20,587 nucleotides of DNA. Origin: a virus (taxonomy: Duplodnaviria > Heunggongvirae > Uroviricota > Caudoviricetes). The stretch's first letter is position 1; each line of letters opens with the position of its first letter. The DNA lies in IMG/VR virus record IMGVR_UViG_3300029862_000030, positions 1 to 20,587 of that record; one strand, given 5' to 3'. The notes beneath the pieces are model-generated. The model was given only the letters and a program-made list of their open reading frames with translations. It had not been told where the DNA came from and searched no databases. Shown one piece after another: positions 266-15,864 of the stretch. A program made the position numbers and the translations under genes.

Positions 266-606
266 CAGTTCACCACCTGCTCAATCGTACAGCTGAAATC
301 ACTGTACCGGGCGTTATCCGTGACGCTCCACTCCCGACACACCACCCTCACCGTCCGGTTATGTTTCGGCGGTCGCCACAAAAAGGCACGGTAACCACCA
401 TGCCAGGATAAAAATTCATCCAGCCAGCGCCGGGTTGACTCATCCGTCACCCGGAACACCGCCTGAAACGTCTTCAGTTGAGGATTCAGTCCTGTGGGGC
501 GGCGCTGTTCATAACCGTCACCAAACCGAACCCTCACCACCGACGGTTTCTCACTCACCTGCATCCCTTCACGCGGGACCAGATGCAGCGTTTTTATCTC
601 AGCCAC
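265..606 (-). CDS. Minor tail protein M (lambda gpM-like)
   Basis: 113-aa ORF in the track. VRFGDGY, HGG and the C-terminal EQVVN are shared with lambda gpM as recalled. It sits between the tape measure and L, as in lambda. Confidence 0.8.
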   Translation of the reverse strand: MAEIKTLHLVPREGMQVSEKPSVVRVRFGDGYEQRRPTGLNPQLKTFQAVFRVTDESTRRWLDEFLSWHGGYRAFLWRPPKHNRTVRVVCREWSVTDNARYSDFSCTIEQVVN

Positions 607-3600
607 TCAGCATTCCTCCGTCACGTCGCATGGACAGCATCACCGCCTGCACCCGCTGGTCAATCAGCTGCACAAGACTGCCTGCCGCCTCCGGCCCTAT
701 CTGTCCGTTAGCCCCGTCATTCTGAATGGCGATGTGGTAGACCGGGGAATACACCAGACCGGCGCTGCCGTTCATACTGCCCACCGCGCGTACGCCCAGC
801 GAGCCATCCGCCGCCCGGGTCAGGGGCATAATGGCTTCAGGTCCGGCTTCCCCCATCAGCCCGGCCCCTTTTGCAAACGCAAAGTACGTGGGCGTGTCCA
901 CAATGCTGTTGCTGTACGCACTCAGATTTGCCGATGTGTAAACACCACCTTTTGCGTTTGCCACTGCCCCCGAAATCCATCCGCCGACCGTACCAAGCCA
1001 CCCTCCGGCACCGGAGAGTGATTTCAGTCCGTTAACAATGGCTGCATTCATCAGAATTTTTGAAACTTCCCGGAGAACTGAACTCCCCCAGTTCCTCCAG
1101 TCCACAACATTCCCGGCCAGTGCATCGGAAATATTTGATACCAGCCCGTCCATCGTGGAAACGACAGCATCTGCCGCCTGCGAAGCATAATCGGTGGCAC
1201 TGTCTGCCCAGTTCGTCAGCCCCTCTTTGAGCCCGGCATTCCAGTTACTGCGTAAAGCATCAGCCTTTGCATAATAATCCTGCTGATCGCTGAGACGCTC
1301 TTCCAGATATTTTTTATTCAGCTCTTTCTCCTGTTTCCACAGGGCTTCTTCAATTTCTCCGGCCTGATACTGTCTCAGTAGCTCGTTATTTTTCTGCTCA
1401 AACTCCTGCCGGATGCTCCACATTTCCTGAAGTCGTTCACGCATCCGTGAGCCTTCACCATATCCCAGTAACTGAGCCTCATTTGATGCTCTGACACTGG
1501 CATTACTGTCCGCCAGACTGCTCTCATACGCAGCAAGCTGCTCACGAATCTTTTTCTGGTCGATAAGTGCTGCATTCTGCAAAAGCGTTTTTTTCTGCGC
1601 TTCTGACAGGGTTGATAATTCGCCCTGACTGACCTGATATTTCATCTTAGCCAGTTCAGTATTCTGCCCTGCCAGTGCTATCTGTTCTTTTTGCTGTTTA
1701 ATCAGCCGTTTATAAATATCCTCTGTTTTTTCCGCTTCGGTCTTTTTATGCGCTTTGGGTTTATTTGCCTGGTTATTTCGCCATGCATCCAGTGAGTTAT
1801 TTATATAATTCAGTCTTGCTGTCTGATACGCCTCTCCCACAAAGCCGAGATCATCCGCAGCATAACCCAGGCGGGCACGCTCACGAGCTTCCCCCTTCAG
1901 GCGGGACAGAGCCAGTTCGCGCTCGCTGTTATTCAGTGCGGTCTGCTGTTTATCATCCAGGGTTGCCTGTGGTAGCCGTAACGGTACATTCACCAGCCCC
2001 TGTCGCTGCTGAAGTAATTCATTACCGAGCCCGAGAAGGCGATTAAACTCGGTATGCTGCCCATTCATGATCAACAGGGACTGATACGCTTTGTTTTGTT
2101 CCGCTGCCTGTTGACGGATCAACGCCACCCGTCGCTCCTCCAGCCCGGCAAGCACATCCTGAATGGATTGCGCTTTGCCCTGCATTTGAGTGAGGCGAGA
2201 CTGTTCAACTGCCAGTTGATTTGTTGCTTCTGCAAGCCCTTCTGTGACAGTTTTTACCGACGTCATGTGGTTAATCATAAAACCGTTATCGGTTGTCCAG
2301 CCCGGGTTTGCCAGCACATACTGATAGCCAGCAATTTTTTCCTGTAAGGATTTAATCTTACTTTTCTGCTCGTCAATTAACCTGTTTTGCTCCTTCAGTG
2401 CCTGTCGCGTCTTTTCCTCATTATCTGACGCTTCAGGAAGCGACATTGCCGACGTTTTCTGGCGAATTTCGTCGATTGTTGCGGCATACTGGCGTGCAGA
2501 TTCTCTGGCCTGCTCCTGATTCTGATACATCGTGTACCAGGCCGCAGCCCCCAGCATGACGAGTCCCGGCACACCACCAACCAGCCCCAGCGCGCCACTT
2601 AATAAACGACTCCCCACTGACGTAACATTATTCAGCGTTGTCTGTGCCGCTGTTCTGGCCGCAATATTACGGGTAAGTGACACCTGGGCAGCTGTCAGCT
2701 TCGCTTCTGCTGCGGCCTGCCTTTCGGTACCGCGAGCAGCAACAACCGCCTGTTGCGCACGATAAACCGCCGCACGCGCCCTGGCGGTTGCTATCTGTGT
2801 CCCCCGAAGTTGCACTTCAGCAAGAGCCACTTCGTTTCTGGCTGCAGTAATTAATCCGGCAGTTGCAGATCCAGCAGACGACGCCATATTGCCAAAATAT
2901 CGGGCTACCCCGACGGCAACCAGAGCACCGGCAGCGGTTGCCACGGTGTCAATATTGCCTGCAATACCATTCAGCACACCGGAGAGCGTCTTCGTCACTC
3001 CGCTTGCCTCGTTCGCACCACCAACCCAGGCCATAAAGGCGTTTTCAACTTTGGTTGCAGAGGATGAAACCGTATCAGGCATTGCCGCATATTCATCACG
3101 TAATGCCCCAAGCTGACTAATCAGTGCAGGAACAACCTTATCGGCGGTCAACTTTCCGTTATCCGCCATGGCCTTCAGATCCTTACGGGCAACTCCCATT
3201 CCCGCAGCCAGAGCACGAATAACACGATCGCCGTTCTCATTCACCGAGTTAAACTCTTCACCGCGCAGCACTCCCTGCGCCAGAGCCTGACTGAACTGCG
3301 TGATCACCGAACTGGCTTCTGCTGTACTGGCACCGGATAATTTCAGGCCCGTGGAGATCGCCTCGGTGACTTTCAGTACCTCCTCAGAACTGTAACCATA
3401 CTCCCGCATGGAAGCTGCAGAGCGGGCAAAAAGGCTGGCGTTATCAGAAAAAGCCGTCCCCGTTCTCTGGCTGATCGCCATTAATTCACGCTGTGATGAC
3501 TGAAAATCATCACTGGACTGTGAGGCCTGCTTCAGACGGGCATTTACTGAATTCCACTCATCGGCGAGAGAAATAAGATGACCGGTAGCAAAAGCCCCGG

Positions 3601-3832
3601 CAAATGCCCCCGCCATGTTCAGTGCCGAAGATTTAGCTGTATTTATCTGATCCGTCACTTCTGCCAGTGCACGCCGCATTTCACGGGATGCAGCAGCGGA
3701 CTGTCGGCCTCCGTTCTGCATGGTACGGTAGTAATCCTGCCCCATACGCGAAGCCCGGGAGATCTCTGACTGGAATGACCGGGAATTTGCCGAGATTTTA
3801 ATAATCAGTTCACGTAATGTCGCCACACTCAT
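599..3832 (-). CDS. Tail tape measure protein (lambda gpH-like)
   Basis: 1077-aa ORF with long Ala/Gln-rich, coiled-coil-like low-complexity stretches. The C-terminus (NDGANGQIGPEAA...RDGGMLSG) resembles the lambda gpH C-terminus. It lies directly downstream of the G/GT chaperone pair. Confidence 0.9.
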   Translation of the reverse strand: MSVATLRELIIKISANSRSFQSEISRASRMGQDYYRTMQNGGRQSAAASREMRRALAEVTDQINTAKSSALNMAGAFAGAFATGHLISLADEWNSVNARLKQASQSSDDFQSSQRELMAISQRTGTAFSDNASLFARSAASMREYGYSSEEVLKVTEAISTGLKLSGASTAEASSVITQFSQALAQGVLRGEEFNSVNENGDRVIRALAAGMGVARKDLKAMADNGKLTADKVVPALISQLGALRDEYAAMPDTVSSSATKVENAFMAWVGGANEASGVTKTLSGVLNGIAGNIDTVATAAGALVAVGVARYFGNMASSAGSATAGLITAARNEVALAEVQLRGTQIATARARAAVYRAQQAVVAARGTERQAAAEAKLTAAQVSLTRNIAARTAAQTTLNNVTSVGSRLLSGALGLVGGVPGLVMLGAAAWYTMYQNQEQARESARQYAATIDEIRQKTSAMSLPEASDNEEKTRQALKEQNRLIDEQKSKIKSLQEKIAGYQYVLANPGWTTDNGFMINHMTSVKTVTEGLAEATNQLAVEQSRLTQMQGKAQSIQDVLAGLEERRVALIRQQAAEQNKAYQSLLIMNGQHTEFNRLLGLGNELLQQRQGLVNVPLRLPQATLDDKQQTALNNSERELALSRLKGEARERARLGYAADDLGFVGEAYQTARLNYINNSLDAWRNNQANKPKAHKKTEAEKTEDIYKRLIKQQKEQIALAGQNTELAKMKYQVSQGELSTLSEAQKKTLLQNAALIDQKKIREQLAAYESSLADSNASVRASNEAQLLGYGEGSRMRERLQEMWSIRQEFEQKNNELLRQYQAGEIEEALWKQEKELNKKYLEERLSDQQDYYAKADALRSNWNAGLKEGLTNWADSATDYASQAADAVVSTMDGLVSNISDALAGNVVDWRNWGSSVLREVSKILMNAAIVNGLKSLSGAGGWLGTVGGWISGAVANAKGGVYTSANLSAYSNSIVDTPTYFAFAKGAGLMGEAGPEAIMPLTRAADGSLGVRAVGSMNGSAGLVYSPVYHIAIQNDGANGQIGPEAAGSLVQLIDQRVQAVMLSMRRDGGMLSG

Positions 3833-6852: not shown

Positions 6853-8070
6853 TTATTTGCCAGTGAGCGCCTTGATGGCTGCCACATCTTCCAGCACACA
6901 GTCAAAACGATGGAAAGCCAGAAATGCCACCTGATCAAACTCAGCATAACGCTCAACCAGACGTTTCAGTTCCATATAAGTAACGCGGCGAATGATAAAG
7001 CGGTTGAAATCCCCCAGGAAAATGAATTTTTTTCCGGTACCAATCCCGTCAATAGCCTGATCAATAACATAAGGGATCCCCAGCACAGTAGCCGGCGTAC
7101 CGCCTGCAATATCCGGCAGCCATAACGGGCGTTTCTGTCCATCCTCCATCTCTTCAATAGTCTGCAATGTGGCATCATTGAATGCCCAGCGGTATTTCGG
7201 CCCACCACGATATGCCGGATCAATGGCATGTTTCAGGGCATTCATTTCTTTCCAGGTGAAAGCGGCAGAGGCTGCAGTCTGGATGGTTCCCGTCACCGAC
7301 GCTGCCAGCCCTTTTGGCTGTAACGGTGATCCCGTTCCGGTCCCCTGAACCAGATATTTTGCCTCTCCACGACCAATACGCTGGGCAATACGGTTTGCCA
7401 GATAAGATTCAATATCCACCCCACTGTCCTGGAGCAGCTCATTGGACACACGAATTATTTTTGATGACAGCTTTTTAGCCCCCAGAATAGCGGTCCCGAA
7501 CGTCACATCCTGTTCCGTTGCGGCTGTATTTTCCGCCAGCAGTTCGCCCTCTTCAGTCGTGCCATCAGACGTTGACCAGGTGATATCCTGCCCGGTTGAT
7601 GTGGTCAGAAGTTGCGCCACACTGGCAATCCCGCCATAAGCCTTCATGGTGTCAATGATTTTGTTACGCATCTGCGTGGGCACCGTATATCCGCCCTGAG
7701 AATCCGTTGTTACACTCTGAGCCCGCAGTTCACGCATCAGATTACGCTCTTCAGCATTCAGTTCTGCAAATCCGGCACGCAGAAAACGGTTAAATGCCGC
7801 AGCGCGCTTCTCTTCCACCGCCTTTTTCCCGTTCTCCGCCTCATTATTCTGGCGCTCTTCCGGCCCGGACTCATCCACATATGCCTGATCCTGACGGCGC
7901 AACTCTTCTTCACGGGCGATTTGCTCATCCAGCGCATCCAGCTCAGCTTTCGCCCTGTTCCACTCTGCCCGTTGCTCATCAGTCCATGCGTTATCACCAA
8001 TTTTTTCATGCAGTGCACGCATATCCTTTGCAATGGTGTTTCGTTTTTGCTTCATCTCATGAAGTTTCAT
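6853..8070 (-). CDS. Major capsid protein, HK97 fold, with an N-terminal delta (scaffolding) domain
   Basis: 405-aa ORF. The N-terminal ~100 aa are charged and coiled-coil-like (delta domain), followed by a capsid-like body. It follows the prohead protease, as in HK97. Confidence 0.9.
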   Translation of the reverse strand: MKLHEMKQKRNTIAKDMRALHEKIGDNAWTDEQRAEWNRAKAELDALDEQIAREEELRRQDQAYVDESGPEERQNNEAENGKKAVEEKRAAAFNRFLRAGFAELNAEERNLMRELRAQSVTTDSQGGYTVPTQMRNKIIDTMKAYGGIASVAQLLTTSTGQDITWSTSDGTTEEGELLAENTAATEQDVTFGTAILGAKKLSSKIIRVSNELLQDSGVDIESYLANRIAQRIGRGEAKYLVQGTGTGSPLQPKGLAASVTGTIQTAASAAFTWKEMNALKHAIDPAYRGGPKYRWAFNDATLQTIEEMEDGQKRPLWLPDIAGGTPATVLGIPYVIDQAIDGIGTGKKFIFLGDFNRFIIRRVTYMELKRLVERYAEFDQVAFLAFHRFDCVLEDVAAIKALTGK

Positions 8071-8084
8071 CGTCAGTAGTATCC

Positions 8085-8684
8085 TTATGCATTAAGAAGG
8101 GTCAAAAGACGCTCACGCGCCATTCGTTCGTTAACAGCTTTCTTCAGCGCACCACTCGCCCGCGCTTCCTGCCAGGCTTTCATTGAGCGGACACCAGAGT
8201 CTGCGTCCTGATAGGCCGGATATGTCACCGGGCTGACGTCATACAGACGAGAAATGCGCGTGATTTCCCGGATAACAATCCCCTCGTCGTCTTCATACCA
8301 GCTCTCTCCGTCACGGGCGACACGAAACGCGAACGAGGACTGATTAATGTCACCACGCAACATTGGAGACAGCACCAGGTCACAAATAGTCGGAGTATCC
8401 GGTGCAACAATGTCATAACGTAAACCGCGTTCATCCACCGACAATGACAACGTGCCGGCAGAACTTCGTCCGAGAATGAAATTAGGATCATGATTAAACA
8501 AGCCACGTACATCATCATTCAGTACATCATCAAAAGCCCCCGGCTTGATGATTTCACGAAATCCCCACAGAGGTTCTGAACGACTGTTAAATACCGAGCC
8601 ATAGCCCAGAATGTGGGTCGGGGCATTATCATATTGTTCCGCCCGCACCTCCCCGCTGTAACAGCGCGTTTCACGGTCATTCAT
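8085..8684 (-). CDS. Prohead maturation protease (HK97 gp4-like, S78 family)
   Basis: 199-aa ORF between portal and capsid, with the typical size and position. Confidence 0.85.
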   Translation of the reverse strand: MNDRETRCYSGEVRAEQYDNAPTHILGYGSVFNSRSEPLWGFREIIKPGAFDDVLNDDVRGLFNHDPNFILGRSSAGTLSLSVDERGLRYDIVAPDTPTICDLVLSPMLRGDINQSSFAFRVARDGESWYEDDEGIVIREITRISRLYDVSPVTYPAYQDADSGVRSMKAWQEARASGALKKAVNERMARERLLTLLNA

Positions 8685-9903
8685 CGTTCTTTTCCTCTTT
8701 GCCTTTCGTATCTTTAAAGTTATTCAACGGATTTGCTGCATTTACGCTGACCAGCATTTCATCCAGACCGTCAACCGGGTTCATATCCTCAAATGCCCTG
8801 GCTTCATTCCGGCTCATCCAGCCATCTGTAATGGCAAAGTGATAGAACTGCGCACGCTCCTGTGGGGTCCCACGGAGCAACCCCGTGAGGTTGAAGCGAA
8901 CGTAATACCCGGCAGCCCGTTCTGTACGGGTAAACAGGCGACGGTTAAGCTCCTGCTCCCAGTTCGCAACCCAGGGCATCATCGTGTAGCGAACAAACTG
9001 AATCGCCTGCTGCGTAATATTCGAAAATGTGGCTTTTTCCAGGTCATTAATCATGTGCGCCGGGACATTAAAAATCCCGGCAATCATCGACCGGTTCAGC
9101 TTGGTCATATCAATGATCTGAGCATCCACCGGAGAAACTGTCAGAGCGCGGTAATCCAGTTGCGCAGGCAGCAACATGGTTTTATTTTCCTGGCTGCGAA
9201 GCGCTGTCACCGCCCGCTGCCACATATTCTTGAGCCTGCTCCAACTCTGTTCGTTCAGTTCATTTTTCACAGAAATAATCCCGGCAGGACGGGCATTACC
9301 GTTAAAAAAAGCACTGGTATACTGCTGACCACTCATTCCCATACCAATGGTTTCAGCATGCTGCATGATCGGACTCAGTCCCATTTTCTGATTGTTTCCC
9401 AGCGCCCTGATATGGATCATGTCGTCCGGACTTACCGCAAATGCACCCTCTTCGTTATACACACCGTAGGTATGACGCCCTCCGGTGTTAAGTAACGTGG
9501 TTTCCCATGGCATACAGCATTCAAGACTGGTAACCTCGCCACGACGATTACGTTTCACCCACGTATAACCATTGCCCCACCCCAGCACATGACGCTGCTT
9601 CAGTTCCCGCCACTTATAGCTGGTCTGCCAGGCATTCGGTTCATCATGAACGAGCCAGAACAACGGGTGATCGCGTGCCGGCTGAACATGCTCATTCGTT
9701 TTTCGCATCACATGCAGGGGCATCTGAGCCACACTGGATGAAATAACATAAATACAGGCATAGACAGCAGCCAGCCTCATGGACGTTTCCGGACTGACAT
9801 ACACATCCCGGGCAAAAATATTATCCGTCTCAGCGGCCTCTCCGGTTACCGGAACCGAGGGATTTTCCAGAGGCTCACTGCGAAACAGAGCATCAAGAAG
9901 CAT
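8677..9903 (-). CDS. Portal protein (HK97 gp3-like)
   Basis: 408-aa ORF downstream of the large terminase, with an AGGAGAAAAC Shine-Dalgarno sequence before its ATG. Confidence 0.9.
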   Translation of the reverse strand: MLLDALFRSEPLENPSVPVTGEAAETDNIFARDVYVSPETSMRLAAVYACIYVISSSVAQMPLHVMRKTNEHVQPARDHPLFWLVHDEPNAWQTSYKWRELKQRHVLGWGNGYTWVKRNRRGEVTSLECCMPWETTLLNTGGRHTYGVYNEEGAFAVSPDDMIHIRALGNNQKMGLSPIMQHAETIGMGMSGQQYTSAFFNGNARPAGIISVKNELNEQSWSRLKNMWQRAVTALRSQENKTMLLPAQLDYRALTVSPVDAQIIDMTKLNRSMIAGIFNVPAHMINDLEKATFSNITQQAIQFVRYTMMPWVANWEQELNRRLFTRTERAAGYYVRFNLTGLLRGTPQERAQFYHFAITDGWMSRNEARAFEDMNPVDGLDEMLVSVNAANPLNNFKDTKGKEEKNDE

Positions 9904-10050: not shown

Positions 10051-11808
10051 TCACAGAATTAACAGGTCCTCATCAGGATCAAGCGTGGACAGAAAGTCAT
10101 TCACGCCCCCGCCATTTACCAGAAAGCGGCTCATGGCTGTAAAAAGCGCAACAGGGCCGTCGATTTTGGCTTCCGGCGTGGATTTATTCGGGAAGATGTT
10201 GTCGTTTTTGTCCGGTTTTACAGTAACGTTAGACATCATCCAGTTCATGACCGGATGATTGCTGTGATGGAAACGCCCGGCATAAACCAGTGATTCCGTT
10301 TCCTTCATGGCCTCTGACAGATTGCGGACCGTCTGCGGAACCTCCACCAGCGGTATCCCTTCTTCAGCCAGTGCCAGGCTGAACTGCATTGCGCTCCACG
10401 GGTCAAATCCCAGTTCCCTGAGGTTTTCACCGCCAATCCATTCCAGTAAGTCACTTTTTATCTGAGCATGATCGATAACATCACCATCCGTCAGGATGAG
10501 CTTATCCATCTCCGCCCACTTCCGGTAAAGTTCTGCCTGCTGCCGCGAGCATCGCTCCAGCCGTCCTTCCGGAAGCCAGAATTTAAAATCAGCATGAACA
10601 TGTCCGTTATCGGTTCGCCAGAGTTTTGCCGCCGCACAGATATCAATCTTATGAGCAAGGTCTACGCCGACCCACATGGGATATGTTTTCAGCTCATGTT
10701 GTGGAGCAATGTATTCGCACTTCTCCCACTTAATCATATCCATCCAGGCAGATTCGGCAGTGACCCACACATTCATGTGTTTGGTAAAAAAATTCACCCG
10801 CGCAGAGACCTGCTCCTTCGCTTTTTTCGCCAGACGACGCAGATCATCCCAGCGTTTACAGATGCCCAGGCCAGGATTCGCTTTCTGCCAGACCGTTTCA
10901 TCAAACGGATCATCTCCCTCATCAAGCGTGTAAATGATCGCAAAGTAAGAGTCGTCTTTTACAGCGCCCTCCACGTCGCTGTTATAGCCTCGCAATACCT
11001 TGATGGCGTAATCACGCTGCTCGTAACAAATCCCTTCCTTGTTAAAGCCAGCCGTGGTGATACCAAATAACAGGGACTGCAGACGGGCACCGGTTGCCGT
11101 TTCCAGAACGTCCCACACGTCGCGGGTTTTATGTGCATGCAGCTCATCAATAATGGCGCAGTGGATGTTCAGACCGTCCAGGTTGTTTGCATCCGAGGAA
11201 AGCGGTTCAAATTTTGATGCGCTCTGCTCCTGGTAAATCGCCAGCTTGTTGAAATCAAACAACCGCCCGAGTGTCGACCGGGCTTTTCTGACCATATTTT
11301 TGGCGTCTTCAAACACGATTCTGGCCTGGTCACGCGTGGTTGCGGCTGAATACACCTCAGCTCCGCCTTCACTATCTGCCCCCGTCATATACAGGCCGAT
11401 ACCCGATGACAGTGTTGATTTTGCGTTTTTACGGGCGACTTCGTTGTACGCCGTCCGGAACCGGCGCACCATCACCGGACGTCCGCTGCCATCGCTGCGC
11501 ATGACAACTTCCCCGGTTTCTTCATTGACCAGCGGAATGACAAAACCAAAAATATTAATGAGGATAAATACATGCCAGTCCATCAACTCAATGGGCTGGC
11601 CTGCCAGTGCCCCTTTTACATGAGGCACAAATTTGTAGAAATTCAGGATGTGCTGCGCACGGGGTTCACTGAAATAAATCCCCCGCTTTTCGCCGTACTT
11701 CAGATCATCAAGAAAACGCTGGCAGGCCAGGCGGACAAATTCGCCAGCAACAATTTCTCCTGCAACAACACGTTCGGCGTAGCGGATCCCGTCAGCCACT
11801 TTTGCCAT
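10051..11808 (-). CDS. Terminase large subunit
   Basis: 585-aa ORF. The start overlaps the small-subunit stop, and it sits upstream of the portal. Confidence 0.9.
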   Translation of the reverse strand: MAKVADGIRYAERVVAGEIVAGEFVRLACQRFLDDLKYGEKRGIYFSEPRAQHILNFYKFVPHVKGALAGQPIELMDWHVFILINIFGFVIPLVNEETGEVVMRSDGSGRPVMVRRFRTAYNEVARKNAKSTLSSGIGLYMTGADSEGGAEVYSAATTRDQARIVFEDAKNMVRKARSTLGRLFDFNKLAIYQEQSASKFEPLSSDANNLDGLNIHCAIIDELHAHKTRDVWDVLETATGARLQSLLFGITTAGFNKEGICYEQRDYAIKVLRGYNSDVEGAVKDDSYFAIIYTLDEGDDPFDETVWQKANPGLGICKRWDDLRRLAKKAKEQVSARVNFFTKHMNVWVTAESAWMDMIKWEKCEYIAPQHELKTYPMWVGVDLAHKIDICAAAKLWRTDNGHVHADFKFWLPEGRLERCSRQQAELYRKWAEMDKLILTDGDVIDHAQIKSDLLEWIGGENLRELGFDPWSAMQFSLALAEEGIPLVEVPQTVRNLSEAMKETESLVYAGRFHHSNHPVMNWMMSNVTVKPDKNDNIFPNKSTPEAKIDGPVALFTAMSRFLVNGGGVNDFLSTLDPDEDLLIL

Positions 11809-12290
11809 CAGTCTCTCGCTTTTAAAAGCTCTGCCAGCGGATCAACATTATCCGGTCCGGCGGTATTTACTTTTGCCCGGCTTGCCGGTGACATACCAAA
11901 TTCTGCAAGCATCGCCCGGATCCGCTTCCAGGCATCCGCTTTCATCGCAGCAGCTGGGTGTGCCTTAATCAGCACATCACCGTTCTGCGTTTCCGAGCGG
12001 TAGGTGTACCCCTCAACATCGAGTGTTTCGCAGTGATGCCGGTATTCGGTATAGGCTTCCACCAGTAGCTCAAGCGCACGCGCATCAAGCTGAGAAATGA
12101 TCCCTTCCGCATTCAGCTCTTCCGCCATTCGCCTGAACCAGTACTTCCCCTGCGCCCCTAAATGTTGCGGAATTTTAGGGAGACCTTTTTCATCCTTTTT
12201 AGCGGTTTTTTTGAGGTCTTTAACTGGCCGCTTTGAGGGGTTGCCTCGTATCAAATGCAGGCGTGGCGGGGTTTTCGGGGGTCCAGACAT
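11808..12290 (-). CDS. Terminase small subunit (P27 family type)
   Basis: 160-aa ORF immediately upstream of the large subunit with which it overlaps. It has a basic N-terminus (KRPVKDLKKTAKKDEKG). Confidence 0.75.
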   Translation of the reverse strand: MSGPPKTPPRLHLIRGNPSKRPVKDLKKTAKKDEKGLPKIPQHLGAQGKYWFRRMAEELNAEGIISQLDARALELLVEAYTEYRHHCETLDVEGYTYRSETQNGDVLIKAHPAAAMKADAWKRIRAMLAEFGMSPASRAKVNTAGPDNVDPLAELLKARD

Positions 12291-12519
12291 AATCGGTTTT
12301 ACCTATCAATCATTTAATCACATTCCAAAAAAAAGTTTTCGAACCTGCGGCGATGCGAGGAAAGGTCAGGCGGCGGTACTGAGCAGCCTGGGTTGCAGAG
12401 ATTTGATCCCCCCCCTCCCCCTTGAAGATGGCGGCAAAAAGCAGATACTGGCCACCCATCAGGATGCTCAGCATGGTGTATTCAGTTAATCTCAATAAAT
12501 AAAAGATGGAGTCTAAGAA

Positions 12520-13035
12520 ATGGATAAAACCAGAAAATATGACAGAGCCTTACAACTTGAAATCCTCAATGCCCTTATAGATTGCGCGCCTAACTCTTTA
12601 AACAAGGCACAGGAGCGAGACCTCATTGAGAAGTTTGACAGTTACGATCACTTTGTGGCGTGCATGTTATACCTTGAAATGCATGGTCTCGTTTCCACCC
12701 CCTTCATACGCAGTGACACCATGGCTGGCGTTGAGTTTATCTTCTGTGCCCCTAACTGCTACATTACAGAAAAAGGAATTGATTTTCTTCTCGATGATGG
12801 CGGCTTAAGTGCGATCCTTAAAGTTCAGACCTTTCGGTTACACAGTGACACGATTGTTGCCCTTGAGGATATAATCCGTGTCGCAAATATATCTGAAGAT
12901 CAGAAGAAGGGATTGATTTCAAAACTCCGAGAGCTTCCGGGAGACGCCATAAAACATTTGACCCTACAGTTACTGACTCAGGGGGTTCTGAATCTGCCGA
13001 ACGCACTTCGACTAATTCAAACAACCCTCCAGTAG
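12520..13035 (+). CDS. Hypothetical protein, unknown function; AT-rich gene on the opposite strand to the late operon
   Basis: 171-aa plus-strand ORF with a GGAG Shine-Dalgarno sequence 9 nt upstream of the ATG. Base composition is visibly more AT-rich than the flanking late genes. It is inserted between the HNH endonuclease and the small terminase gene. Confidence 0.6.
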   Translation: MDKTRKYDRALQLEILNALIDCAPNSLNKAQERDLIEKFDSYDHFVACMLYLEMHGLVSTPFIRSDTMAGVEFIFCAPNCYITEKGIDFLLDDGGLSAILKVQTFRLHSDTIVALEDIIRVANISEDQKKGLISKLRELPGDAIKHLTLQLLTQGVLNLPNALRLIQTTLQ

Positions 13036-13170
13036 GGCTAAACTCATCTGAGGGGCGAATTAACTCAAATTTGCCCCATCCCAGTTTTTCACTTAAAACA
13101 ACCCAAAATCCCTCCCGGGTATCTGCATGAATATAGAAACTATTTTTATGCATTACAGCAGTGAATATTA

Positions 13171-13521
13171 TCATCGAATACGTTCCCTTGCTGTCTTCTC
13201 TCTGTGGCATTCCCTGCATAACGACTCAAGATTGGAGTCATCATCGGTGCCGCCATGAGCTTTTGGAATCATGTGGTCTACAGTCCTGGCCTCAACGGCT
13301 CGTCCATTGCGCAGACAGTTCTTACACAGATGGTTATCACGCTTCAGTATACGCGCACGTATAACATCCCATTTCGAGCCATAGCCACGCTGGTGGCGAC
13401 TCAGTCCGCGTTGATGCTGTACCCATCCTTCACCACGATGTTTATCGCAGTAACCAGAACTGTCTGTGGTTGTACCTGCGCATCCACGCTTACGGCAGGC
13501 ACGTGGGATTCGTGATGGCAT
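13171..13521 (-). CDS. HNH endonuclease (packaging-associated, HK97 gp74-like)
   Basis: 116-aa ORF with Cys pairs flanking an H-N-H motif region (CKNCLRNGRAVEARTVDHMIPKAHGGTDDDSNLESLCRECHREK). Confidence 0.85.
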   Translation of the reverse strand: MPSRIPRACRKRGCAGTTTDSSGYCDKHRGEGWVQHQRGLSRHQRGYGSKWDVIRARILKRDNHLCKNCLRNGRAVEARTVDHMIPKAHGGTDDDSNLESLCRECHREKTARERIR

Positions 13522-13563
13522 AAATACCTCATACCCTGCGAAATGTTTACCACGATAAAAAGG

Positions 13564-14028
13564 CTACTTAATGCACTGAGTGCGGATATACTCCTGTGCC
13601 CCTTCCAGTTGCATCTGCATCGTCATCAGCCGCTCTCTGAGGGTGAAATAATCCCGTTCAGCGGTGTCTGCCAGTCGGGGGCTGGTTGCATTATCCACGC
13701 CGGAGGCGGTGGTGGCTTCACGCACTGACTGACAGACTGCTTTGATGTGCAACCGACGACGACCAGCGGCAACGTCAGCGCGAAGAGTTTCATTTTCAGC
13801 CTTCGCATCAGCTAACTCCTTCAGGTATTTTGCATCGAGTGCAGCAACATCACGCTGGCGTATCTGCATGTCAGTAATGATTGCGGTCGCCTGGTTGAGT
13901 TTTTCCATCACATTATCGCGTTGCGCTTTGTAGGTAATGGCATTATCACGGTAATGATTGACCGCCCACGACAGGCAGACGATGATGCAGATAACCAGAG
14001 CATAAATAATCGCGGCGACTCTGCTCAC
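13564..14028 (-). CDS. Rz: Spanin inner-membrane subunit (Rz / i-spanin)
   Basis: Near-identical over long stretches to lambda Rz as recalled ([27 protein letters not shown]..., [25 protein letters not shown]). The track ORF begins at TTG 14043; the likely true start is GTG 14028 (VSRVAAII, aligned with lambda MSRVTAII), overlapping the endolysin stop. Confidence 0.9.
13626..13808 (-). CDS. Rz1: Spanin outer-membrane lipoprotein subunit (Rz1 / o-spanin), nested inside Rz in the +1 frame
   Basis: 60-aa ORF with the lipobox LVVVGC and the proline-rich segment [29 protein letters not shown], almost identical to lambda Rz1 as recalled. Confidence 0.85.
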
Positions 14029-15614: not shown

Positions 15615-15691
15615 TGGCGCGTTGTACTGGATTCGAACCAGTGACCGATTGCTTAGAAGGCAATTGCTCTGTCCGGTTGAGCTAACAACGC
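15615..15691 (-). tRNA. tRNA-Arg (anticodon TCT, reads AGA), argO-like
   Basis: Hand-folded from the reverse complement: acceptor stem GCGTTGT/ACAACGC, D arm GCTC..GAGC, anticodon stem ATTGC/GCAAT with loop CTTCTAA, T arm CTGGTTCGAATCCAG, discriminator G and an encoded CCA. Similar to E. coli argU. Confidence 0.8.
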
Positions 15692-15704
15692 AGGGTACAG
15701 ATAA

Positions 15705-15781
15705 TGGACCGCCATCGAGGACTCGAACCCCGCGCAACCAGCTTCGAAGGCTGGTGCTCTATCCTGATGAGCTAATGGCGG
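15705..15781 (-). tRNA. tRNA-Arg (anticodon TCG as read by hand, reads CGA), argN-like
   Basis: Hand-folded: acceptor stem CCGCCAT/ATGGCGG (C1-G72), D stem GCTC/GAGC, anticodon stem CCAGC/GCTGG with loop CTTCGAA, T arm CGGGGTTCGAGTCCTCG and an encoded CCA. The anticodon call depends on my loop assignment. Confidence 0.65.
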
Positions 15782-15788
15782 TATGTGA

Positions 15789-15864
15789 TGGTGGCCCTTG
15801 CTGGATTTGAACCAGCGACCTGGCGATTATGAGTCGCTCGCTCTCACCACTGAGCTAAAGGGCC
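15789..15864 (-). tRNA. tRNA-Ile2 (anticodon CAT, lysidine type, reads AUA), ileZ/ileX-like
   Basis: Hand-folded 76-nt sequence GGCCCTTTAGCTCAGTGGTGAGAGCGAGCGACTCATAATCGCCAGGTCGCTGGTTCAAATCCAGCAAGGGCCACCA, which closely resembles E. coli tRNA-Ile2 (ileX) as recalled. Anticodon loop CTCATAA. Confidence 0.8.

Follow-up and report, generated by a model that had tools for sequence, protein, structure and literature searches.

Why should the DNA just upstream of a phage small terminase gene carry a run of cytosines broken by a single thymine? The tract lies within positions 12291-12519 of the window, by which we mean the whole stretch of 20,587 nt of viral DNA analyzed here. The original prediction took this interval for a probable cos or packaging-initiation region, with a slipped-strand mispairing site acting on the neighboring gene as an equal option. 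We put at roughly 85% the probability that positions 12291-12421 hold an HK97-type, HNH-assisted cos site of an E. coli prophage and that the C8-T-C5 tract is its allele of a G-rich box (G-box), an accessory subsite.

Gene context of the tract

The window was found to belong to an E. coli lambdoid prophage, positions 11800-13600 being 99.8% identical to Escherichia phage PhiR49_2 (ECOR13). Its genes, open reading frames (ORFs), and inserted DNA are as follows.

599-3832, minus strand: tape measure
6853-8070, minus strand: major capsid
8085-8684, minus strand: protease
8677-9903, minus strand: portal
10051-11808, minus strand: large terminase (TerL), HK97 type (PF20441 and PF03354)
11808-12290, minus strand: small terminase (TerS), P27 family (PF05119, E 4.9e-25; TIGR01558; phrog_83)
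12310-12495, minus strand: 61-aa ORF, judged spurious (no Pfam or PHROG match)
12422-13153, plus strand: inserted cassette (moron) of 732 nt between the HNH gene and the G-box, absent from most relatives
12520-13035, plus strand: 171-aa ORF (phrog_3983)
13171-13521, minus strand: HNH endonuclease, packaging-associated, gp74-like (PF01844, E 9e-16)

The original prediction had assumed a context of HNH endonuclease, P27-type TerS, and large terminase, and the family matches listed for these three genes bore it out. Lysis genes come after the HNH gene, and the segment upstream of them at 15615-15864 (minus strand) encodes three tRNAs, Arg(tct), Arg(tcg), and Met(cat), in PhiR49_2 as well. Since the terminase genes are encoded on the minus strand, the C-tract of the plus strand is a G-tract in the packaging direction.

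Sequence comparison with the HK97 packaging proteins revealed 28% identity of TerL to gp2 over 466 aa (E 6e-41) and 40% identity of the HNH protein to gp74 over 47 aa (E 7e-11), whereas BLASTP detected no similarity between the window TerS and HK97 gp1. In the family search, gp1 matched only phrog_5601, while the window TerS fell into PF05119, TIGR01558, and phrog_83. In a related prophage of E. coli 2009C-3133 (locus 1115-2323), an ISVsa5 element of the IS4 family is inserted just inside the start of the TerS gene, such that an intact cos stands beside a disrupted packaging gene. Literature searches found no paper on PhiR49_2 or on Proteus phage Pm34, which is used for comparison below.

The tract and the neighboring motif

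Both sequence features named in the original prediction were present: CCCCCCCCTCCCCC (C8-T-C5) occupies 12408-12421 on the plus strand, and GGCGGCGG occupies 12369-12376. With up to one mismatch allowed, a run of 14 C was found once in the window, against 0.01 expected from dinucleotide-preserving shuffles. The 8-mer GGCGGCGG is unremarkable by itself, with 2 matches in the window versus 0.91 expected, which is insignificant, and its meaning comes from its position and homology.

Comparison with the HK97 cos and with phage record ends

Positions 12291-12421 matched the cos of HK97, which has been defined by experiment, element by element, and the elements assigned to the window are given here in the direction of the terminase strand.

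12408-12421, minus strand: G-rich box, reading GGGGGAGGGGGGGG on the terminase strand; outermost conserved cos element, at -56 to -43 from the predicted top-strand nick
12400-12407, minus strand: ATCAAATC, A-rich flank of the G-box, identical in HK97 (GATCAAATCT)
12377-12399, minus strand: spacer of 23 nt, fixed in length and free in sequence, with low information content in the alignments
12375 to 12366, minus strand: predicted cohesive end, a 10-nt 3' overhang CGCCGCCTGA, by homology to HK97, Pm34, and AH07
12327-12354, minus strand: ATCGCCGCAGGTTCGAAAACTTTTTTTT, conserved left-arm block ending in T8; putative TerS binding site (cosB-like)

The minus strand of the window reads GGGGGAGGGGGGGGATCAAATCTCTGCAACCCAGGCTGCTCAGTACCGCCGCCTGACCTTTCCTCGCATCGCCGCAGGTTCGAAAACTTTTTTTTGG...ATG, with the layout GGGGGAGGGGGGGGATCAAATCT-N20-TACCGCCGCCTGA CCTTTCC...GAAAACTTTTTTTT...ATG, and HK97 is laid out as GGGCAGGGGGGGGGATCAAATCT-N20-GACCGCCGCCAAA|GTTTGA...CCCGATTTTTTT...ATG. 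The HK97 record runs from physical end to physical end, its right end being ...GGGCAGGGGGGGGGATCAAATCTTCAAAACCTTTGCCCCAAATGACCGCCGCCAAA and its left end GTTTGAATTTAACGCTAACCCGATTTTTTTAG...ATG with TerS at 50, so that the record finishes ...GAC CGCCGCCAAA and restarts at GTTTGA. These ends were reportedly first mapped by Juhala in 2000. They carry 10-nt 3' overhangs (PMC9410871), and HK97 TerS binds from +15 to +29, a segment that includes an essential A/T tract in which interrupting G:C pairs abolish binding (PMC11331095).

The window and HK97 have in common the G-run with ATCAAATCT, CGCCGCC at the cut, and the order of G-run plus ATCAAATC, 29-nt spacing, ACCGCCGCC at the nick, and a downstream T-tract, the last of which is the TerS site in HK97. 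TCAAA and ACCGCCGCC are spaced 29 nt apart in HK97, mEp235, and Fraca as they are in the window, and the last G of the box lies at -43 in the window as in HK97, whose box is G3-C-A-G9. The gene order HNH-cos-TerS-TerL is shared as well, with TerL and HNH being homologous. On the other hand, the window has a P27-family TerS with no detectable similarity to gp1, a longer left arm (T-tract at +32-39 versus +24-30 in HK97), a TerS ATG at +76 rather than +50, TGA instead of AAA as the last three overhang bases, and a 732-nt cassette that parts the HNH gene from cos. Because its TerS shows no BLASTP similarity to HK97 gp1, the system is of mixed character: judged by these alignments, it is HK97-like in the cutting machinery and the right arm and P27-like in the recognition subunit and the left arm.

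Two further records have boundaries at this site. The Pm34 record boundary, GGAC|CGCCCCCTTA, corresponds to the other nick, as the record starts with the 10-mer; in the terminase orientation, the break falls within ...CCTAGGAC|CGCCCCCTTACCTCTTTTCACATC..., 10 nt ahead of the one of HK97 type. The record of Pantoea phage AH07 ends ...CCTCCTGAC and starts CCTTTTTATGCAC..., while prophages with AH07-type flanks read ...CTTCCTGAC CGCCCGCCCC CCTTTTTATGCAC...; AH07 therefore lacks exactly the 10-mer CGCCCGCCCC, as expected if library preparation removed a 3' overhang. The record ends of HK97, Pm34, and AH07 thus mark one pair of positions, 10 nt from each other, and from this a 10-nt 3' overhang, CGCCGCCTGA, is predicted for the window. 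The nicks are predicted between 12366 and 12365 on the minus strand and between 12376 and 12375 on the plus strand. The predicted left end would start at 12365 with CCTTTCCTCGC and place the TerS ATG at +76, as in Pm34, and the predicted right end would finish with CAGTAC followed by the 3' tail CGCCGCCTGA.

A second CGCCGC at 12347-12352 lies nearer the T-tract than the predicted nick does and counts against the predicted cut site, and an IMG/VR scan with the left-arm motif found no contig that ends at the predicted nick. We nevertheless regard the nick positions as likely on the evidence of the sequence comparison. A cut at the second CGCCGC was considered from the start of the Providencia phage PSTRCR_117lys record (GGTTAGAAAAC...), which we set aside because, compared with Pm34, 39 nt are missing from its cos, apparently through misassembly. 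The Fraca record start was also rejected as cos evidence, since it consists of a terminal duplication plus unrelated sequence, and KLB28 was rejected as end evidence, with no cos features at its record ends.

Three public records (MW358929, MZ501270, and LR597645) proved faulty exactly at cos: PSTRCR_117lys is short of 39 nt, AH07 of the 10-nt overhang, and Fraca has a duplicated end joined to unrelated sequence. Public phage records are thus often wrong at cos.

These comparisons changed the reading of the two sequence features. The tract is distinct from the cohesive end: lying 43-56 nt upstream of the predicted nick, it is a G-rich box in its own right. The GGCGGCGG motif, rightly placed within cos, is part of the predicted cut site, since the overhang CGCCGCCTGA (12375 to 12366) holds most of it, and it aligns with the ...GACCGCCGCCAAA| end of HK97. 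The earlier statement that no literal lambda cosN occurs here is true only of the full 12-mer, because the 7-mer GGCGGCG is shared with the lambda cohesive end, which is GGGCGGCGACCT (PMC12315714). With high confidence, 12291-12421 can be taken as the cos site, such that the prophage ends can be annotated with the predicted cohesive end CGCCGCCTGA.

An inserted cassette and the outer limit of cos

In relatives, the HNH gene directly adjoins cos, and in those without the cassette the G-box follows within about 20 nt after the HNH gene. In the window, the 732-nt cassette lies between them: where close relatives read HNH...CCCATCTGTA-GGGGAGGGG..., the window reads HNH...CACTGCTGTA-(732 nt)-GGGGGAGGGG.... 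The cassette is carried by 27 of about 927 E. coli records sharing this cos, and 10 of these 27 have a second cassette allele that is about 86% identical. Homology to close relatives breaks at about 12421, or at 12431 in one relative class. The cassette thus joins immediately outside the box (12421-12431, approximately), which makes the box the outer limit of the kept cos. The interval originally called probable cos was consequently too wide: 12291-12421 stood, and the right-hand 98 nt (12422-12519) are the start of the cassette.

The 171-aa protein of the cassette matched phrog_3983, a family of unknown function, with an E value of 1e-56, and no match was found in Pfam, NCBIfam, or PADLOC. 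As its gene is opposite in orientation, late transcription must cross the cassette antisense. Two terminator-like hairpins are present inside the cassette on the late-gene (minus) strand, at 13101-13120 and 13022-13040; if these are functional, terminase expression would need antitermination. A second G-box remnant on the HNH side of the cassette was also considered, and the alignment did not bear it out.

Conservation and spacing of the G-box

The 80 closest IMG/VR relatives carry a G-rich box at the corresponding place, ending about 117 nt before the TerS ATG. The commonest form, GGGGAGGGGCGG followed by GTCAAATC, accounted for 43 of the 57 loci that the search pattern picked up, and the form seen in the window (G5-A-G7/8 plus ATCAAATC) occurred, among the 80 relatives, only with a cassette-bearing flank. 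A scan that took one genome per species with a TerS alignment also yielded 80 loci, from Enterobacterales, Pseudomonas, Aeromonadaceae, Gilliamella, Martelella, Phaeospirillum, and others, nearly all of which had GGGGAGGG[GC]GGG and then an A-rich segment. They fell into two classes: class A, with a TerS 49-73% identical to the query alignment and a box at about -130 from the ATG, and class B, with a TerS 33-41% identical to it and a box at about -104.

The box, in its usual form GGGGAGGGGCGGG, was conserved across many genera in 77 distinct cos regions (43 of class A and 34 of class B), a count that is not one of independent cases, since the sequences compared are related. The 77 aligned regions come from Enterobacterales, Pseudomonas, Gilliamella, and Martelella; the Aeromonadaceae locus was left out of the alignments, and the box is visible there, too. 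In both alignments, information was high at the box, the AAA flank, the GAC|C nick context, and the left-arm block and low in the spacer. The AAA core of the A-rich flank is kept in both classes, as are CCGC at +16-19 and a T-tract at about +32, and the left-arm block ATCGCCGCAGGTTCGAAAACTTTTTTTT is near-invariant in class A. Most class A relatives have, after the T-tract, a GGGG-N1-2-CCCC palindrome at about -45 to -30 from the TerS ATG (e.g., ATGGGGTCCCCCA), in whose place the window and its close relatives from E. coli have GGAATGTGATTAAATG.

Among the 67 regions scored for spacing, the last G of the box preceded the first predicted overhang base by 29-32 nt (class A) or 28-32 nt (class B), while the distance from the box to the TerS ATG differed by 26 nt between the classes. 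The box therefore tracks the nick and not the gene. Moreover, it is present with unrelated TerS families, namely P27 (PF05119 and TIGR01558) and HK97 gp1 (phrog_5601), whereas the left arm differs between the two groups; phages with an HK97-type TerS have the same box with a G-run of 7-11. Taken together, we are fairly confident that the G-box is a functional subsite of cos. We propose that it is read largely as G-richness or DNA shape and not as an exact sequence, a mode of reading that would explain the drifting homopolymer length (7-11).

Could the box instead have no function of its own, as a neutral G-rich leftover, or a recombination joint bordering the cos module, that common descent alone has kept? 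It does coincide with a mosaic boundary, because homology to close relatives stops at the box or within 10 nt of it and the cassette was inserted there; the window allele (G8-ATCAAATC) is nearer to that of HK97 than to the form of the closest relatives, and the exact sequence and length of the box are loose. However, the 20-odd nt between the box and the cut have diverged freely, while the box has stayed G-rich and in register alongside a TerL that is only 28% identical and an unrelated TerS. A spacing of 28-32 nt across Enterobacterales, Pseudomonas, Gilliamella, and an alphaproteobacterium is also unexpected of neutral sequence, and we consider a functionless box very unlikely.

The same measurements bear on a role of the box as RNA, in which a leader structure or processing site in the late HNH-to-terminase transcript would control TerS expression. 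The leader transcribed ahead of TerS does include the box, on the coding strand, and G-rich RNA can form stable structures. Yet no Rfam match was found near the tract, the only matches being sub-threshold chance matches inside the TerS gene, and the single strand folded no better than shuffles and was in fact less stable (z = +1.63). Given, in addition, that the distance to the nick is constant while that to the TerS start shifts by 26 nt from one class to the other, and that the box is kept with unrelated TerS genes, control through RNA is highly improbable.

A literature search by box sequence and by G-rich cos elements returned nothing on phage cos; older papers lie outside its coverage, so an earlier description is possible. 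The HK97 packaging literature that was found places TerS binding downstream of the nick and mentions no upstream element. The one modestly interesting point here is a widely conserved and apparently unstudied cos subsite in an otherwise ordinary member of the HK97-type cos family.

Length variation of the tract and the 61-aa ORF

The other option in the original prediction was slipped-strand phase variation, with the tract acting as a switch for the 171-aa gene at 12520 or for the small ORF that contains it. The tract does vary in length. In a set of 17 close E. coli genomes, the stretch measured 230, 231, 232, and 233 nt in 5, 10, 1, and 2 genomes, respectively, and C7 (2014C-3075), C9 (201609), and C10 (FY26 and NCTC11151) were read directly, with T and C5 being invariant; HK97-type phages range from G7 to G11. 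Some of this variation is possibly sequencing error, but C10 was found in two independent assemblies and the C7 length in five genomes. As in contingency loci, therefore, a G/C homopolymer of 7-10 differs in length between isolates.

Unlike the tracts of contingency loci, however, this one is outside any credible coding sequence or promoter spacer, and its long uninterrupted run is exceptional among relatives. No sigma-70-like promoter was found in 12200-13250, and the gene at 12520 begins about 100 nt downstream of the tract, which is outside its coding sequence and outside any predicted promoter spacer. Furthermore, the box occupies the same place in many relatives that have no 171-aa gene and predates that gene, and it is usually interrupted there (G4-A-G4-C-G3) and not slippage-prone.

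The small ORF fares no better as a target of switching. It has no family match, and it joins cassette DNA to cos DNA whose conservation has other causes; the C7, C9, and C10 alleles disrupt its reading frame. As indels blurred a frame comparison across 80 relatives, we relied on the pattern of tract length and annotation. RefSeq calls a 54-aa version (WP_154675861.1; 12310-12474, minus strand) in every listed genome of C8 length, one of which was checked directly, and among the listed genomes only in these; it is unannotated in those with a tract differing by 1-2 bases (C7, C9, or C10). A call that appears and vanishes with homopolymer length behaves as an artifact, and this ORF, which RefSeq annotates or drops accordingly, can be removed. 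The original view that 12291-12519 holds no convincing gene and that the 61-aa ORF is spurious is consistent with all of these results.

Thus, with no promoter or credible gene depending on the tract, phase variation is highly improbable: of the slipped-strand option, the variation in length (C7-C10 in close E. coli) was confirmed, and the regulatory role was not. We read the polymorphism as ordinary homopolymer instability that is tolerated by the box.

Proposed role of the G-box and comparison with other packaging sites

HK97 serves as the structural model for cos packaging, and current models explain recognition only via the TerS site downstream of the cut. By analogy with HK97, a TerS ring would bind the T-tract block and recruit TerL and the HNH protein, which would introduce staggered nicks 10 nt apart. 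Packaging would then proceed away from cos with the terminase genes first, the TerS start at 12290 being 76 nt into the virion chromosome. At the next cos, TerS bound downstream would stall the motor, and the end would be cut. The G-box would lie on the end that is packaged last, with about three helical turns between it and the first nick, and could serve as an accessory cos subsite that helps to position or license the cut, most likely at termination, like cosQ of lambda. Kept at a fixed distance across the cut with unrelated TerS families, it is a candidate for an element of site-specific cutting at termination. Alternatively, the box may provide docking for the HNH partner or TerL at initiation, or it may act through the physical effect of a stiff G tract.

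Two known packaging sites invite comparison. The pac1/pac2 sites of herpesviruses likewise combine G-rich and T-rich elements with a CGCGGCG-like motif that sets cleavage at a fixed distance (PMC13595911). Their arrangement is different, and the likeness to the G-box cos is one of composition only; that the G-rich/T-rich/CGCCGCC "grammar" is shared by descent is very unlikely.

Lambda, the other, has the order cosQ-cosN-cosB, in which cosQ, conserved and 7 bp long, lies on the packaged side, is needed for nicking at the downstream cos, and is independent of cosB specificity (PMC4669245). The order of box, cut site, and TerS site parallels this arrangement, as the G-box, too, is on the packaged (right-end) side of the cut and a few helical turns off, is short and conserved amid variable neighbors, and is independent of TerS specificity. 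The right end of lambda reads ...GATGATAATCATTATCACTTTACGGGTCCTTTCCGGTGATCCGACAGGTTACG|, including ...CTTTACGGGTCCTTTCC..., and a perfect dyad, TGATAATCATTATCA, stands there 6 nt before GGGTCCT, which we take to be cosQ. A like dyad is found in front of the G-box: with at most 4 mismatches, a lambda-type dyad was present at most 45 nt upstream of the box in 80 of 140 distinct HK97-like or P27-like cos regions, compared with about 3.7% of shuffles, these regions again being akin and the count not one of independent cases. The dyad resembles a Fur box (TGAnAAT-N-ATTnTCA); a perfect copy, TGATAATGATTATCA, is present in a Providencia prophage, and the lambda copy is at 48450-48465. In the window, a dyad remnant at about 13154-13175 is parted from cos by the cassette.

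The two systems also differ. The presumed cosQ sequence is GGGTCCT, whereas the G-box is a G-run of 13-14 nt, and the G5-A-G8 of the window does not contain the conserved 7 bp of cosQ; the lambda element lies 23 nt from the nick and the G-box about 31 nt; and lambda has 12-nt 5' overhangs and no HNH partner. Its relative position, its independence of the TerS family, and the shared dyad favor a cosQ-like role for the G-box, and an action specifically in termination, drawn from this analogy, is a tentative proposal to which we give somewhat less than even odds. More doubtful is the broader idea that every HK97-type cos, that of HK97 included, depends on an undescribed subsite formed by the G-box and the preceding dyad, which as the counterpart of lambda cosQ would pass the signal to cut to the motor through TerL, the HNH partner, or the portal.
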